From the IMG/VR virus record IMGVR_UViG_3300015371_000017, positions 1 through 64,000 of that record: a stretch of 64,000 nt of DNA; one strand, 5' to 3'. The translations under genes and the position numbers were made by a program. Every line of letters begins with the position of its first letter. The first letter of the stretch is position 1. Source of the stretch: a virus. Positions 5,953 to 62,395 of the stretch are shown here, in pieces. The notes under the pieces are model-generated. The model made no database searches, was not told the origin of the DNA, and saw only the letters and a list, made by a program, of their open reading frames with translations.

Positions 5953-6567
5953 ATGAAACGCAGCACTCCATTAAAGCCGGGGAAGGGATTCAAACGGCCA
6001 TCTTTGGTCGAAGTTCGCGAGAAGCAAGCCGAGAAACGCCAAAATCGCCCTGTATCGTCGCTCAGACGCCGGACGCCTGATACTGCGTCCCGAGGGCTAA
6101 ACGCCAGCCAGGGGCTAAATGCGGCGAAATCTCGCCTATCACGGCGGACCAAGCCTCTTCGGACTAAACCGCGCAAAGGCAGAGGTAAGTTACCATCGTT
6201 CAAGTGGCTCAAGAATCGCCTCGATATCTTGACCTCACAGATCGTCCGATTGCGAGATGGTCGCTGCGTTCTCTGTGGTACTTCAGAACGATTGCAGTGC
6301 GGTCATATATTCGGCCGGCGCAGTCATGGCGCCCGATGGGACATAGAACCAGACGGCAACTGTCATGGTCAGTGCTCAGGATGCAATCAGCGTCATAATT
6401 ACGAGCCTCTAAGGTTCTATCGCTGGTTCATTCAGAAGTTCGGGCAAGAGAAGTTTGACGAACTCTATGCTCGCTGGCAAAAGGGCAGAAAGTTTACTCG
6501 ATTGGAATTAGTGAACTTGGTTGCAGAATATGAATCGAGATTGGTAGCGATGAACAATGGAGCATAG
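5953..6567 (+). CDS. NinG/Rap-like recombination endonuclease
   Basis: IVRLRDGRCVLCG...LQCGHIFGR...RWD...NCHGQCSGCN; basic MKRSTPLK N-terminus. Confidence 0.8.
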   Translation: MKRSTPLKPGKGFKRPSLVEVREKQAEKRQNRPVSSLRRRTPDTASRGLNASQGLNAAKSRLSRRTKPLRTKPRKGRGKLPSFKWLKNRLDILTSQIVRLRDGRCVLCGTSERLQCGHIFGRRSHGARWDIEPDGNCHGQCSGCNQRHNYEPLRFYRWFIQKFGQEKFDELYARWQKGRKFTRLELVNLVAEYESRLVAMNNGA

Positions 6568-50287: not shown

Positions 50288-50983
50288 TCACTGTTCTAGA
50301 TTGCTCTCTTGCGGCGCTAACTCATTGCTGGTGTTAGACTTATCGAGCAATGAACCGCTGGGCCACACCTCTGGATGCACACTCGCGTCCAGGTCAGCAG
50401 AGTAATCCTCGTCTGACTTGTCGGCGTAGCTTATTTGATATTCTCGCTCAATCTCAAGAGGATCATCGCCGGAGTTACTGGCTAATTTAGCGATATTACG
50501 GGACATTTTAGCTTTGAAGGATGAGAAGTCGAAGGAAGAGACCGAAGACTCTACTTTATCAGTGAATAATGCGTGGATTTTACCGACATCGCGCTGAGCT
50601 TCGTGAGCGGAGTAAGTTTCCAATCCGATGACTTTGCCAGAGTCCTTATCAAACTTCAGTGATTTGATTAGTTTTGATTTATTGCGGGCTTTTGCTGAGG
50701 AAATATTAAAAGAGCCATCAGGCTCAAGAACATCAGCAATGTCAGCGCGGGCAATATCTGAGAGTCTTTCGACAACCTCGTCAGCGTCCATTTTGGCCTT
50801 ACGAAGAGCCGCTTCAGTTACTTGGTTAATCATAGCTTTGATTTTAGCGGATTTAAGCAACCGATGCGCAGTTACTCCGGCTGCGAAGTATCCTTGCTTA
50901 TAACCAGCTGCGAATACCGCCTGAACGCCATTGCCGCCGTTTCTAATGTACTCAGCAGCGAATAGTCTGTGTTGCGGCCTCAA
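50288..50983 (-). CDS. terS: terminase small subunit
   Basis: F..EY...GGNG.QA..AAGY...A.RLL....I; VVERLSDIARAD. Confidence 0.85.
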   Translation of the reverse strand: MRPQHRLFAAEYIRNGGNGVQAVFAAGYKQGYFAAGVTAHRLLKSAKIKAMINQVTEAALRKAKMDADEVVERLSDIARADIADVLEPDGSFNISSAKARNKSKLIKSLKFDKDSGKVIGLETYSAHEAQRDVGKIHALFTDKVESSVSSFDFSSFKAKMSRNIAKLASNSGDDPLEIEREYQISYADKSDEDYSADLDASVHPEVWPSGSLLDKSNTSNELAPQESNLEQ

Positions 50984-54841: not shown

Positions 54842-55150
54842 GGCAGAAAGGTTGAGACAATGGGATTCGTCGGACAGGTAGGATTTAGACCGGGCTTTGG
54901 GCCAATCTACCGCGCTGAGAAAGTTGACGAGCCTGCGGGTTTTACAGGCCGTACCTTGACTGTTTCCTACCGATCTGAGACTTACACGCGACTGATTGAA
55001 CTTGGTAGGCCTGACCTCGCTAAACACCATTTGATTCAGATTGCCCGCAATGGCCGGACGGTTTACGCCTCGAAACAAAGTGCTTTAAGAGACGCACGAC
55101 GACGATATCAAGGATGAGATGCCCGAGCGGCAGAAAGGTTGAGACAATGG
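54842..55150 (+). repeat. identical 22-bp start-region repeat
   Basis: GGCAGAAAGGTTGAGACAATGG at 54842-54863 and 55129-55150. Confidence 0.9.
54860..55117 (+). CDS. hypothetical protein
   Basis: starts at the ATG inside repeat copy 1. Confidence 0.5.
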   Translation: MGFVGQVGFRPGFGPIYRAEKVDEPAGFTGRTLTVSYRSETYTRLIELGRPDLAKHHLIQIARNGRTVYASKQSALRDARRRYQG

Positions 55151-55550: not shown

Positions 55551-55806
55551 GCCGACTGACCGCATCCCTTACGGCGTCCGCGTGAGACGAGGATTTAGAG
55601 ACTGAAACCCTGAGAGGATAAGGTTGAGTGACGCGGAGCAGTAGCCACTCACGCTGCTGGATTTAATTCAGACCAGTCAGACTGTGCGGCCACGGGCCAG
55701 TAAAGTCAGACCCTTCCAGGTACATGCGCCGTGTTATAATAGCCAAAGTCGCCAACGGGTTCTGTCCGCTGACGACTCATTCCAAAACCTATGATGGAGG
55801 TTTCAG

Positions 55807-59162: not shown

Positions 59163-59384
59163 TTAGCAAATCGAATGTAATCCACCCTGCGCGAACTGAA
59201 TCAAAAGGATCAGTAACAGAATCAGCGCGATCACTAATACGATCCACTGAGCGTAAGCGTTGATTGGCGCGGGTAGTTTGCTCAGAATGAGCCACAGAAT
59301 CAAAAGAAAGACGACGACAATCAGCGCCCAAATTAGAAGGGTTGGCAAACACGACAAGCCTAACCCTGCAAGTAATAGAATCAT
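59163..59384 (-). CDS. small multi-TM protein (holin candidate)
   Basis: two long hydrophobic helices linked by LPAP. Confidence 0.55.
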   Translation of the reverse strand: MILLLAGLGLSCLPTLLIWALIVVVFLLILWLILSKLPAPINAYAQWIVLVIALILLLILLIQFAQGGLHSIC

Positions 59385-59533
59385 TTCTCTTCCTCCTGCT
59401 TTTTTGGTTCAGTATCGAGGGGTTCGATGTAGACGGTTTGATGTAGATCAGTCTCGTCTCTAGTCGAGACTTTATGAGTGCGCCGATTGATCGGAATTAC
59501 GATTGTCTCGTCGTCAGGGTCGATTACTTTCAC
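59381..59533 (-). CDS. hypothetical protein
   Basis: GTGA-coupled; GGAGG RBS. Confidence 0.45.
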   Translation of the reverse strand: MKVIDPDDETIVIPINRRTHKVSTRDETDLHQTVYIEPLDTEPKKQEEEK

Positions 59534-59685
59534 CGCGCCTCCATCTCGGCACAATCCGCGCAAACCCAGCGTGTCCACCTCCGTGAACCTGATTCATTGC
59601 GAAAGCGCATAACTCCGCGCCGATGAAGGCGGAATAAACAGTGAAGCCAGATACCAATCTTATAGCCAATGGGTTGAGTTCGCAC
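59530..59685 (-). CDS. 51-aa leaderless protein (not in ORF track)
   Basis: C.FRLH...CADC; TAGACA-18-TACAAT 6 nt upstream. Confidence 0.5.
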   Translation of the reverse strand: MRTQPIGYKIGIWLHCLFRLHRRGVMRFRNESGSRRWTRWVCADCAEMEAR

Positions 59686-59744
59686 GGGCGGATTGTACGC
59701 CGCATTTAGTAGGGATGTCTATGAAATTCAATGAGGTTGCTGGA

Positions 59745-59787
59745 GAAACACGAAACCCGCTAGGTGCTGCTTAGGAACCTAACGGGC
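59745..59787 (-). terminator. intrinsic terminator-like hairpin
   Basis: CCCGTTAGGT...ACCTAGCGGG followed by TTTCGTGTTT on the minus strand. Confidence 0.5.
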
Positions 59788-59850
59788 CGTGCTGATTGTT
59801 GAGATCAGGTTGAACGAGCTTGCTCACTTAGAAGCCTATCAAAAAAAGTG

Positions 59851-59879
59851 TTGCGTTACAACTTAAATCGGCGTATCTT
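59851..59879 (+). promoter_or_regulatory. promoter for the structured RNA
   Basis: A-tract, then TTGCGT-17-TATCTT. Confidence 0.55.
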
Positions 59880-59884
59880 GGGCA

Positions 59885-60290
59885 TGTTGAGACTAGGTTG
59901 AAAATTGAAGTCCTTCCGATTCCTTTCAACCCGTACTAAATCAACTTTTGTCGGATGCTTTACCTATGACGCTTTTGAGTAATAGCGTAGAACCCTATCG
60001 GTTGGCTGCTTGGCTGATAGGAAAACGTGCCGCAGGGCGCAACGGAAGTTGCGGGGCAGACTGTCTGAAACTTCGGTAATTCCGATCCCTAGTAACGTCC
60101 CCTGACCATAGTAGGGCCGCAAGGATAAGACAAAGCAGCGCGCGAAAACTGAGACACCTCAGCGGGCTCACACCTTAAATCCGACAAGACGCAATCGCGG
60201 TTAAATCTTTGCGCCGTTTAGTAGACGCCGTGAAGTTGGGCAAACCACGTACTTACGTTGCCTAGCGTCTCACACCTAAAAGCGAGAGGA
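59885..60290 (+). ncRNA. large multi-stem structured RNA or leader (unassigned)
   Basis: 59946-59956 pairs with 60179-60189 and encloses at least 6 hairpins, including GNRA loops; no ORF of 60 aa or more. Confidence 0.6.
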
Positions 60291-60297
60291 TGGTTGA

Positions 60298-60624
60298 GTG
60301 ATGGCAATAGACAAGATTCCGAAGGTTGGACGGTTCCTTTTCACGGAAAGTATGTTACGAGATGGCTTCTTCCGACGCACGGGAACAATCACTAAAATAT
60401 CGGGTAAGCGCATTTACTACGACGAGCACAAGGACAGCACAATTAACACTGAGCGGTTTATTCATCGTAAGACGCTTGCCGCCGTCTGTGACACGTCGGA
60501 AGAAATTGAGGCGTTGCGATCATTCAACAGCCGCGCCTTAGCGGAAGTGGGCGCACTGAAAGCACGTCACAAAGAGGAAGCCGCAAGATTTTTTGACAAT
60601 GAAGTGTCTGATTTGCCGAAATGA
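60298..60624 (+). CDS. hypothetical protein
   Basis: GAGGA RBS downstream of the structured RNA. Confidence 0.6.
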   Translation: MMAIDKIPKVGRFLFTESMLRDGFFRRTGTITKISGKRIYYDEHKDSTINTERFIHRKTLAAVCDTSEEIEALRSFNSRALAEVGALKARHKEEAARFFDNEVSDLPK

Positions 60625-60826
60625 CGCCGACTACGGCGACGTATGTAAGAGTTGCTATCGCGGTCTTGAGGCGTTCAAGCGAAACACAAAGTATCTTGGG
60701 CGAGCGATAAGTTATCTGAAAAAGAAAGCGAAGCTGATAACGAAACACGACCGCCGCGCGAGGCGAAAAAGAGCGGTAGAATTACGCAAGTTGATCGCGG
60801 AACAAAAAGCAGACCGTAGATCGTGA
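60599..60826 (+). CDS. endonuclease VII C-terminal-like Zn-finger protein or remnant
   Basis: CLIC...VCKSCYRGLEAFK....LGRAISYL; catalytic DH segment absent. Confidence 0.5.
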   Translation: MKCLICRNDADYGDVCKSCYRGLEAFKRNTKYLGRAISYLKKKAKLITKHDRRARRKRAVELRKLIAEQKADRRS

Positions 60827-60843
60827 AGTGGCATGACAGATGA

Positions 60844-61296
60844 TCACCCAGAGCTATCGTAAGTGGCTTCAAATCCGCAATCAGGGCACTTTACGTGCTG
60901 GTCGTGCATTCGCGGTGAGTCCCATTTCCAATTTGGATGCTGACAGCCCAAGAGATAGAAATGCACGTCGTAACCATAGCCGTCGCCATCTTTGCTGATC
61001 CACGTTCCAGCCTTTGGCGGATCATCCGATTTCTTCATATAGCGTTCGGCTACCGCGACAGCTTCACGATGAAAAAAGTAGTAATGCCACGAATACCACC
61101 ATTGACGGTCATTAGGATCGGCATCGGGCAGCGGCGCGGAGCCACCGTAGTTCAATCCTTCCAATCCCCAAGGCCCACAATGGAAGTAACGAATAAAATC
61201 ATTCTGAGAGATTTCAGTTAGCGGCGATGCCGCTCGATTCGGGCCGTTCTCCCATTTGATGCCGAAAATATCAGGCTTGCTCCACTGGATTCTCAT
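60844..61296 (-). CDS. hypothetical protein with C-terminal Zn ribbon
   Basis: GCQH...CPDCGFE...DSSG; GGAGG RBS. Confidence 0.6.
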   Translation of the reverse strand: MRIQWSKPDIFGIKWENGPNRAASPLTEISQNDFIRYFHCGPWGLEGLNYGGSAPLPDADPNDRQWWYSWHYYFFHREAVAVAERYMKKSDDPPKAGTWISKDGDGYGYDVHFYLLGCQHPNWKWDSPRMHDQHVKCPDCGFEATYDSSG

Positions 61297-61453
61297 ATTC
61301 TCCTCCACCACCTCAACAACCTGCGCCAAAGAGGAACAGGCGTGTCTTGAAGGGCATAGCTGGCAACCTTCTTCTCGTAATTCAACACGATCTCATTTGG
61401 TATAAGGCGTCCTAGATGTCGCATGGTTACTCCTCTCAGCCTTGAGTATTGAA

Positions 61454-61558
61454 GTTGCGCGACCCGGCTTCGTCATGAAACCAGCCTGAGCGTATCGCCC
61501 TTCCTAGGTGACGACCGCCTAACCCGCTACGGCAAACCGCAGGGACGGAGCCGCGCAA
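61454..61558 (-). ncRNA. multi-stem structured RNA (unassigned)
   Basis: closing stem TTGCGCGGCTC/GGGTCGCGCAA enclosing three hairpins. Confidence 0.55.
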
Positions 61559-61579
61559 AACTTTTCAAATATCAGGACA

Positions 61580-61682
61580 GTTGCGCAGCGGACAGGACTC
61601 GAACCTGCAATCGAGCACCTCATCGCGTTTAGTGCTCACGGGCATTCCGCGCGTCTGCCATTTCCGCCACTCGCCGCGCAAC
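61580..61682 (-). ncRNA. tRNA-like RNA lacking a normal anticodon arm
   Basis: D arm TGGCGGAAATGGCAGACGC, T arm GCAGGTTCGAGTCCTGT, acceptor GCGGCG/CGCTGC, 3-bp/5-nt anticodon stub, long variable arm. Confidence 0.75.
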
Positions 61683-61736
61683 ATCTGGTAGGCCGAAGCT
61701 GTCCTGTTCGGTAGCGGAAAGCCTCGACCTGAAAGT

Positions 61737-62360
61737 TCAACCTTCGAATTGAAATACTTCCTGACTCATTCGCTTCGCTGCTATCTCGCAATACTTTTCT
61801 GACTTTTCTATGCCGATTGCCGTTCTGCCGAGATCCTTAGCGGCTCGAAGAGTTGTGCCTGAGCCCATGAACGGATCAAGGATCGTTTGCGCTTTCGTTC
61901 TGTTAATAAGCCACTTTGCCCACTGAAGAGGCTTCGGGCAAGGATGACCATTCGGCGGTACTGGTTGAGCATAAAAGTAATCGTGCATCTGAAGCCCCTG
62001 AATCTTTCCGTAAACTAGCAGAGGCTCCCAATCATTGAATCCGATATACGCTGCGTGTCCGGGCGATCCTTTGTACCAACAAATCAACCAATCGGGCGGG
62101 ATTGTTTTATAAATCCACTCGAGCTGATTTATCTGACATGACGGCAAAATGCCCATGTCGGCATTCGCTTTCACCCATCCCACAAGAAGCAGCATCAGAG
62201 TGCGCCAACCTTCCAAGTTGTCATCGTGCGAATCATATTGAAAATCCACGCCATAAGGCGGGTCAGTCAGCACTAAATCAACCTTCGGCAAAGACAGCAG
62301 AATCTCACGACAGTCTCCGTGGTAAATCGTTACTGCTTCGTCTTGGTAATAAGGGGTCAT
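61737..62360 (-). CDS. orphan N6A/N4C DNA methyltransferase, paralog 3
   Basis: IYHGDC, TDPPY, HPCPKP, DPFMGSGTT, AIGIE motifs. Confidence 0.9.
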   Translation of the reverse strand: MTPYYQDEAVTIYHGDCREILLSLPKVDLVLTDPPYGVDFQYDSHDDNLEGWRTLMLLLVGWVKANADMGILPSCQINQLEWIYKTIPPDWLICWYKGSPGHAAYIGFNDWEPLLVYGKIQGLQMHDYFYAQPVPPNGHPCPKPLQWAKWLINRTKAQTILDPFMGSGTTLRAAKDLGRTAIGIEKSEKYCEIAAKRMSQEVFQFEG

Positions 62361-62395
62361 TCCCACACGCTTGCGCGTCAGCTTCGACCAGAAGT

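Follow-up and report, generated by a model that had tools for sequence, protein, structure and literature searches.

The translational operator of T4 gene 32 is the classical case of leader control in a phage. The put site of phage HK022, about 70 nt long and folded into two stems, is a much smaller structured element. Candidate cis-regulatory structured RNAs (csRNAs) precede the phage genes GP20 and GP32 (Fremin, Bhatt and Kyrpides 2023, PMC10690425), and the large ornate RNAs described in bacteria and phages include GOLLD, ROOL, OLE and raiA (10.1101/2024.12.08.627333). Here we analyze a locus with some likeness to each of these systems. It lies in a window of 64,000 nucleotides at the start of an IMG/VR record (IMGVR_UViG_3300015371_000017) that is 75.1 kb long, comes from an uncultured soil phage and is rated 100% complete by CheckV. 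The sequencing runs that contain DNA identical to the window are rhizosphere metagenomes, and no RNA run is listed among the runs that contain it.

As in the csRNAs and the T4 gene 32 operator, the element is structured and non-coding, stands directly upstream of the gene for a small, possibly nucleic-acid-binding protein (108 aa), shows covariation in metagenomic relatives, and carries a sequence motif that adjoins the ribosome-binding site. Unlike typical operators, it is much larger, with about 290–390 nt and about 12 helices, and unlike the csRNAs and the gene 32 operator its link to the 108-aa gene family is not general. The likeness to a riboswitch consists in a long-range helix (P1) that closes a multi-helix junction, in the GNRA loops, in the 5' leader position, and in the motif, which lies beside the 3' strand of P1 and is repeated by the ribosome-binding site. 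The element differs from a riboswitch in having no Rfam match, no terminator and no hint to a ligand, and in that a candidate start-sequestering helix has a folding-energy z of only −0.29. With GOLLD, ROOL, OLE and raiA it shares a large, multi-helix, phage-borne character and a position about 1.3 kb from a tRNA-like gene (the single ARAGORN call in the window, at 61583–61677 on the minus strand), whereas it is smaller than those RNAs, is represented by three sequences, has no covariance-model match at E = 10 and gives no hint of a multimer. Like put and the lambda nut sites, the element lies just downstream of a putative phage promoter, and its motif copies follow hairpins in an arrangement that loosely recalls the boxB–boxA order of rrn leaders. 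Unlike put and nut, it has no downstream terminators to read through and no boxA consensus. A put-like antiterminator leader, which was among the identities suggested by the initial annotation of the sequence, is unlikely, since put is so much smaller and no plus-strand terminator is found within the two genes that follow the element. We also considered whether the motif resembles boxA and whether the odd tRNA nearby might be connected with the element in the manner of a T-box; no support was found for either.

The ORF map agrees with the initial annotation, which had described about 400 nt without a sizeable ORF: no ORF of at least 60 aa is found in 59706–60297. The genes to the left of this ORF-free stretch run leftward and extend no further than 59578; among their products are a membrane protein of 73 aa and a lipoprotein-like protein of 148 aa. 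To the right lies a rightward two-gene unit. Its first gene, which encodes a protein of 108 or 107 aa, occupies 60283–60624 on the plus strand together with its ribosome-binding site GAGAGGA (probable start ATG at 60301, alternative start at 60298), and is followed by a 77-aa zinc-ribbon ORF (60593–60826, plus strand) that resembles the C-terminal end of the endonuclease VII family (phrog_2633, E = 4.9e-4). Between the end of the unit and a convergent leftward gene lie 17 nt. With leftward genes on both of its sides, the unit forms an island of rightward transcription polarity among leftward genes. An 18-nt direct repeat, with one copy (TGTTGAGAnnAGGTTGAA) at 59797–59814 on the plus strand and the other at 59885–59902 (repeat search family D2, 89% identity), flanks a promoter-like site with its two copies and may be a protein-binding site.

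Diverged copies of the element were sought among Logan contigs aligned to positions 59300–60800 at 80% likeness. Two were found, so that three sequences are available in all, counting the window itself. The first contig (X8) is 463 nt long and comes from a 2024 soil metagenome; it covers 59906–60259 and differs from the window by 27 substitutions and 11 gaps. The second (X7), of 235 nt, comes from a soil metagenome dated 2018 and covers 60067–60274 with 8 substitutions. Their identity to the element is about 89–93%. The runs X5, X6 and X9–X22, which contain only small shares of the stretch, were left out of the comparison. Five differences (at 60070, 60188, 60196, 60199 and 60231) are common to X7 and X8, which indicates real variants and not read errors. 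Other searches for the element gave no match, including blastn against the phage collection, a search of the rest of the phage's own genome, exact and degenerate pattern scans built from invariant stretches and run over viral and genome contigs, and protein-guided searches of viral and genome contigs with the flanking genes. A tblastn search of the 527-aa ORF against phages likewise yielded no match. The diverged copies also bear on coding potential. X8 carries single-base indels at 59924, 59929, 60043, 60066 and 60177 and lacks two bases at each of 59936, 59945 and 59959; these frame-breaking changes disrupt every small ORF and exclude a coding role. Among 5.8 billion predicted proteins, none matches the longest ORF that crosses the element.

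Taken at the level of sequence comparison, these data make it likely, in our judgment, that the element is a real and conserved plus-strand RNA structure belonging to an undescribed family. The structured RNA would occupy the stretch from about 59946 to 60235 and may extend to 59885–60281. The seven helices proposed in the initial annotation are all present and consist only of canonical or G·U pairs. The long-range helix P1 joins 59946–59956 to 60179–60189 (plus strand, as are all helices below) by 11 bp of canonical pairs and closes a multi-helix domain. Both of its strands are recovered by RNAalifold; a core of 9 bp is invariant in X8, and the 3' strand belongs to inverted repeat I10. Near its outer end, neither X7 nor X8 retains the pair 59947/60188.

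Within the domain closed by P1, the P2 hairpin (59969–59988) has a stem ACGCU/AGCGU of 5 bp (59969–59973 with 59984–59988) and a 10-nt loop; it is invariant in X8, which makes the comparison uninformative for this helix. P3 (59994–60021), also invariant in X8, has a stem of 10–12 bp that includes 3–5 G·U pairs and is the main indicator of the strand. P4 (60028–60058) has an inner stem (60038–60043 with 60048–60053) capped by the loop GGAA, with two compensatory pairs in X8. The P5 domain (60062–60132) is closed by UGUCU/AGACA (60062–60066 with 60128–60132) and contains the subhelices P5a (60073–60085), P5b (60087–60116) and P5c (60117–60124, CC-GCAA-GG). The last hairpin of the domain, P6 (60137–60168), combines an inner CUGAG-ACAC-CUCAG (60149–60162) with an outer GC-rich stem and is invariant in X7 and X8. 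Downstream of P1 follow the mini-hairpin P7 (CGC-AAUC-GCG, 60190–60199) and the hairpins P8 (60207–60235) and P9 (60239–60259). The 5' portion of the stretch (59885–59945, plus strand) is poorly conserved, with five indels relative to X8. It holds a candidate arm UGAGAC at 59888–59893 that could pair with 60267–60272 (H0) and a candidate hairpin at 59896–59931 (H1); both consist of canonical pairs, and both were dropped from the model, their 5' arms overlapping in X8.

RNAalifold, applied to the window and the two natural variants (with the listed differences of X7 and X8 entered into the window sequence), returned P1 with a core of 7 bp together with P2, P3, P4, P5a, P5b, P5c, P6, P7 and P8. 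This result equals the initially proposed model minus the UGUCU/AGACA helix that closes the P5 domain, for which covariation is zero and in which U60066 is lost in X7 and X8. Minimum free energy folds of the single sequence disagree with each other depending on the chosen ends and were therefore left out of the model.

Covariation in homologs had been named in the initial annotation as a check on the structure, and in the two homologs available, examined by RNAalifold and by a shift test, compensatory changes keep the hairpins P4, P5c and P7. In P4 of X8 the pair 60040/60051 changes from C-G to A-U and the pair 60042/60049 from A-U to G-C, and the GGAA loop is rewritten, growing from 4 to 5 nt. 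In P5c of X8 the pair 60118/60123 changes from C-G to U-A alongside a change of the loop from GCAA to GAAA. In P7 of X8 the pair 60190/60199 changes from C-G to U-A, while X7 is changed at 60199 only and has a C·A mismatch there. In P8 the substitution of U by C at 60231, found in both X7 and X8, turns a G·U pair into G-C, and a G to A change at 60221 falls in the loop. Among the 24 listed substitutions of X8, eight make up four compensatory pairs, one converts G·U to G-C, 14 lie in loops or linkers, and a single one breaks an end pair of P1 (60188 G to U, in the second-outermost pair). Three of the compensatory pairs fall within helices that had been proposed before the comparison, which has P = 7e-5 under random placement of 24 substitutions. 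When the clustering of substitutions was preserved by circular shifts, one shift in 353 equaled the three compensatory pairs, and the number of broken pairs was 1 as observed compared to a mean of 4.2 over the shifts. The helices that are invariant in the available copies (the P1 core, P2, P3, P5a, P5b and P6) speak in this comparison neither for nor against themselves. Outside the two rewritten hairpins, the core at 59964–60187 differs from X8 by only three substituted bases and two deletions of one base each over about 200 nt (~98% identical), and the X8 contig is dissimilar to the window just beyond 59906 and 60259. The sharp drop in identity at both edges indicates that the block is more constrained than its flanks.

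A repeated sequence reported in the initial annotation is indeed present, with CTCACACCT at 60167 and again at 60269. In its longer form CUCACACCU(U/A)AAA (repeat family D3) the motif occurs twice in the genome and nowhere else in it: copy 1 at 60167–60179 lies directly 5' of the 3' strand of P1, and copy 2, CUCACACCU at 60269–60281, lies just upstream of the ribosome-binding site, both on the plus strand. Each copy is preceded by a hairpin and AGCG. The two copies change in concert. Both read CUCACGCC in X8 (60172 A to G, with the same change in the loose end of the contig after 60259), and both have one additional base after CUCAC in X7 (an insertion behind 60171, and again in the loose end after 60274). 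That both copies should change alike at one position, and do so in two lineages, is hardly to be expected by chance (from the per-site rates of change we estimate a probability well below 1 in 1000) and points to a partner shared by the two copies. Candidates for this partner include a protein, the sequence GGUUGAG at 60292, or AGGUUGAGAC elsewhere in the genome. The motif is complementary, with one bulged base, to GGUUGAG, which at 60292 is situated between the ribosome-binding site and the ATG at 60301; GGUUGAG is not seen in the visible downstream sequence of X8 and X7.

The transcription signals around the element are less distinct than the initial annotation suggested. The sequence TTGCGT-17-TATCTT with an upstream A-tract (59851–59879, plus strand), which had been proposed as the element's own promoter, matches 7 of 12 consensus positions, lies below the scan threshold and is a weak candidate, although the consensus may not be that of the host. 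A scan of 59300–60700 with the consensus found no plus-strand promoter, and its sole match was a leftward TAGACA-18-TACAAT at 59721–59692. No terminator-like site was found on the plus strand in 59300–61800, a range that includes the element, the gap to the gene and the two-gene unit. The absence of a terminator before the 108-aa gene favors reading the element as a 5' leader, as does the purine-rich ribosome-binding site that again follows the second motif copy in X7 and X8.

These observations lead us to favor, tentatively and short of an even chance, the reading that the element is a structured 5' cis leader of a new family that controls the 108-aa gene. Under this scenario, P1 would close a junction formed by P2, P3, P4, the P5 domain and P6, and three further hairpins and the second copy of the 9–13 nt motif would follow downstream of the closed junction. 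The element would be transcribed as the long 5' leader of the small rightward two-gene unit, itself set moron-like among leftward genes, and would control in cis the translation or the stability of the small-beta-barrel gene. This control could take either of two routes. A factor, perhaps the 108-aa protein itself, could bind the two CUCACACCU copies, or copy 2 could pair alternatively with GGUUGAG at 60292. For the latter route, the candidate start-sequestering helix noted above (CUCACACC/GGUUGAG) folds no better than shuffled sequence. The transcription of the element, its ends, its action in cis and its binding partner are all parts of this scenario that we infer.

Metagenomes contain more than 100 cluster representatives of the 108-aa protein, which belongs to no Pfam family; Logan contigs encode homologues of 73% and 41% identity. 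An AlphaFold model from 54 sequences (pLDDT 92.7) predicts a small beta-barrel of five strands and, after it, a helix of 40 residues, whereas the model from 3 sequences (pLDDT 47) was unusable. Fold searches with this structure returned, besides uncharacterised phage proteins, only generic barrels of the Tudor, chromo, PWWP or KOW type, with Foldseek E values of at least 0.009; the best Z in VIA was 6.4, to a PWWP–ssDNA complex, and the best match in BFVD is an uncharacterised Aeromonas phage protein. An Atlas hint of "Phage ProQ C-terminal-like" (0.86) was discarded, being unsupported by Pfam, where 2 of 54 members matched with a best E of 0.025. Many small beta-barrels bind nucleic acids, which is a property of the fold class. 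That the 108-aa protein might regulate its own expression through the two motif copies is a guess that draws on the predicted fold.

The element could instead be a free-standing phage RNA that acts in trans, processed or Rho-terminated out of the transcript. We regard this as somewhat unlikely in itself, yet not far behind the leader reading in probability. Such an RNA, with the same likelihood attached, might serve as a protein scaffold or decoy, or its CUCACACCU copies might pair with (A)GGUUGAG(AC) at phage translation starts. The element does appear to be separable from the gene. A scan of metagenome contigs found only two, L002 and L003, neither of which extends far enough upstream. L002 encodes a 108-aa gene that is 97% identical and has DNA in common with the window only from 60246 on, that is, from the 3' half of P9. 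Upstream of that point L002 contains the final part of an HNH endonuclease ORF that continues with its last few codons into the common sequence, so that the end of the ORF corresponds to the 3' half of P9; the contig begins inside this ORF and covers nothing further upstream. With the HNH ORF abutting 60246, an HNH gene can evidently stand between the 108-aa gene and the place of the element, and the 108-aa gene does not need the element adjoining it. A scan of viral contigs recovered three distant loci from which the element is absent; the homologues of the 108-aa gene encoded there (32–36% identity) lie in tightly packed operons with no long leader ahead of them, and BLAST found nothing like the element in these records. 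The findings in L002 and in the distant loci count against a leader dedicated to this gene family. A partner shared in trans would also fit the way in which both motif copies change in parallel. A further candidate partner is provided by the complementarity, with one bulge, of copy 2 (GUCUCA(C)ACCU) to AGGUUGAGAC, which is part of a 22-mer that recurs unchanged in the ribosome-binding region of each of two consecutive genes (starts at 54861 and 55148) and would form a duplex of about −17 kcal/mol. However, neither a terminator nor a known processing site marks a 3' end for a separate RNA, and by our estimate complementarities of 10 nt are expected often by chance between a 400-nt RNA and a 75-kb genome. 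GGTTGAG occurs 14 times in the genome compared to about 9 expected, which is a mild enrichment.

It is also possible, though we consider it unlikely, that the element is the founding example of a new class of large (~300–390 nt), tertiary-structured phage RNA. The two GNRA loops and a P1-closed junction of at least five branches suggest a tertiary-structured fold. An RNA of this kind might be a ligand sensor, a catalytic RNA, or one half of a ribonucleoprotein formed with the small-beta-barrel protein, and the two co-evolving CUCACACCU sites would then be sites of protein docking or of target pairing.

At the opposite end, the locus may not hold one large RNA at all. An ordinary divergent control region would then contain a small number of local hairpins and short motifs (sites bound by proteins, for example, or stems that stabilise the transcript), and the remaining conservation would reflect the recent common ancestry of three closely related phages. 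This reading draws on the folding energies, which are less striking than the term "highly structured" in the initial annotation implies. The comparison with shuffled sequence proposed there gives z = −1.05 for the whole 413 nt on the plus strand and −0.26 on the minus strand. The domain closed by P1 (59944–60191) reaches z = −2.1 to −2.2 on the plus strand compared with −1.14 on the minus strand, and 4 of 45 random 248-nt windows from the same genome have z ≤ −2.2. Thermodynamically, then, the description is overstated: a domain z of −2.1 is matched by about one in ten random windows of the genome, and the folding energy is unexceptional for this genome. Furthermore, only three short hairpins, of 6, 2 and 3 bp, show covariation, and P1 and the junction show none, the outer pair of P1 being broken in X7 and X8. 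Against this, the sharp fall of identity at the edges and a core that is ~98% identical outside the two rewritten hairpins speak for selection on the whole block, RNAalifold retains P1 and eight inner helices, and 23 of the 24 listed substitutions leave the model intact. On balance, we find it rather improbable that the element amounts to a few hairpins.

The P1-closed junction and the GNRA loops directly upstream of a gene have the look of a riboswitch or ribozyme and suggest that the element might be a divergent representative of an established class. Such classes include riboswitches, ribozymes, fragments of group I or group II introns, put-like antiterminators, and retron or omega-type guide RNAs. 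Database searches make membership in any of them very unlikely. The initial annotation had matched the element to no recognised RNA family, and a scan with Rfam 15 is in agreement with it. None of its 4227 models, which include riboswitches, ribozymes, introns, 6S, tmRNA, RNase P, GOLLD, ROOL, OLE, raiA and HEARO, matched anywhere in the window at the gathering score, and none matched either strand of 59600–60400 (801 nt) up to E = 10. In particular, the self-cleaving ribozyme families in Rfam have no match to the element. ARAGORN finds no tRNA or tmRNA within 59885–60290. No reverse transcriptase (PF00078) was matched in the 75.1-kb record, in a search whose positive controls were matched, and a genome with no reverse transcriptase does not offer the enzyme that a retron msr-msd or another RT-associated ncRNA calls for. 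The element also has no expression platform of the terminator type, and the neighboring genes give no metabolic hint to a ligand.

The strand on which the structure forms can be judged from several helices. P3 folds with −11.5 kcal/mol on the plus strand compared to −4.8 on the minus strand, P6 with −10.9 compared to −8.6, and P8 with −9.6 compared to −7.1 kcal/mol. The change of the P5c loop from GCAA to GAAA in X8 retains a GNRA tetraloop on the plus strand only. Together with the G·U to G-C change in P8, these results favor a plus-strand RNA over a minus-strand RNA or a double-stranded DNA site, and they uphold the earlier argument that the G·U pairs and GNRA loops favor an RNA of this strand. 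The growth of the P4 loop from 4 to 5 nt suits a hairpin and argues against a palindromic protein site or operator. A role at the DNA level, as a single-strand initiation or origin-like signal or as palindromic operators co-evolving with a repressor, is thus the least probable of the readings considered, since, even though the C-G to A-T and A-T to G-C changes are symmetrical and cannot alone separate RNA from DNA hairpins and 18-nt direct repeats lie nearby, a G·U-rich stem such as P3 and the conversion of G·U to G-C in P8 are typical of RNA, the longer P4 spacer is bad for a dimeric operator, the replication-related-looking genes are far off at the record's other end (an HTH_36 protein at 880–1683 and NinG at 5953–6567), and the position of the small terminase at 50288–50983 makes a pac site in the element unlikely.

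It is rare to find a large structured RNA that belongs to no known family, and several of those already described are phage-borne with functions that are still obscure. In the present case, the compensatory changes found in independent soil samples, the absence of an Rfam match and a motif that evolves in concert together offer an experimental handle. If the element amounts to no more than a leader carrying a few stabilising hairpins, it would be one more among the roughly ten thousand catalogued candidate structured RNAs of viruses. If it is instead a regulatory leader of the 108-aa gene, or the partner of its product in a ribonucleoprotein, it would provide the first functional context for a widespread family of small-beta-barrel proteins with more than 100 cluster representatives.

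The top-ranked sigma-70-like promoter of the region is directed leftward (TAGACA-18-TACAAT, 10/12; positions 59692–59721, minus strand) and faces genes for a membrane protein and a lipoprotein, located to the left of the candidate structured RNA element; these two genes may constitute a lysis cassette. The weak rightward promoter-like site TTGCGT-17-TATCTT (59851–59879, plus strand) is flanked on both sides by the copies of an 18-nt direct repeat (59797–59814 and 59885–59902), which are 88 nt apart, are identical at 16 of 18 positions and may represent a pair of regulator-binding sites. Elsewhere in the window, two small genes that follow one another (starts at 54861 and 55148) carry an identical 22-mer (54842–54863 and 55129–55150) across their ATG and ribosome-binding region, and a related sequence, AGGTTGAG, is found at 55621. 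The 22-mer may serve as a shared translational operator.

Downstream of the RNA element, the rightward unit encodes two small proteins. No Pfam model covers the family of the 108-aa protein (60298–60624, plus strand), which comprises over 100 cluster representatives (50% identity) and in which the CDT and G-x-I-T motifs are almost invariant; the fold of the protein is confidently predicted to consist of a small beta-barrel and a long helix (pLDDT 92.7). The 77-aa protein (60593–60826, plus strand) contains a CxxC...CxxC arrangement and a very basic tail, and its match to phrog_2633 (endonuclease VII family) involves only the C-terminal end of that family (E = 4.9e-4), so that it resembles a His-Me finger relative in truncated or minimal form.

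The metagenome contig Ga0247685_1000430 (L002), which shares DNA with the window from 60246 on, carries at its positions 1–248 an HNH endonuclease ORF that is open at the 5' end and terminates within the shared sequence (compare window position 60246). Relative to this contig, where 61187 is joined directly to about 62357, the window has an extra block of ~1.17 kb (61188–62356) with one or more tRNA-like genes and an N6/N4 DNA methyltransferase gene (61737–62366). ARAGORN called a 95-nt tRNA-Gly(GCC) at 61583–61677 (minus strand), and the Rfam tRNA model had no match at the gathering score in the whole window; this tRNA-like gene is atypical.

Comparison of L002 with the window also shows that the 3' half of hairpin P9 (60239–60259, plus strand), at the 3' side of the RNA element, corresponds to the final codons of the L002 HNH ORF, an arrangement of the two sequences that suggests a homing-endonuclease insertion or replacement precisely at the element's 3' boundary.
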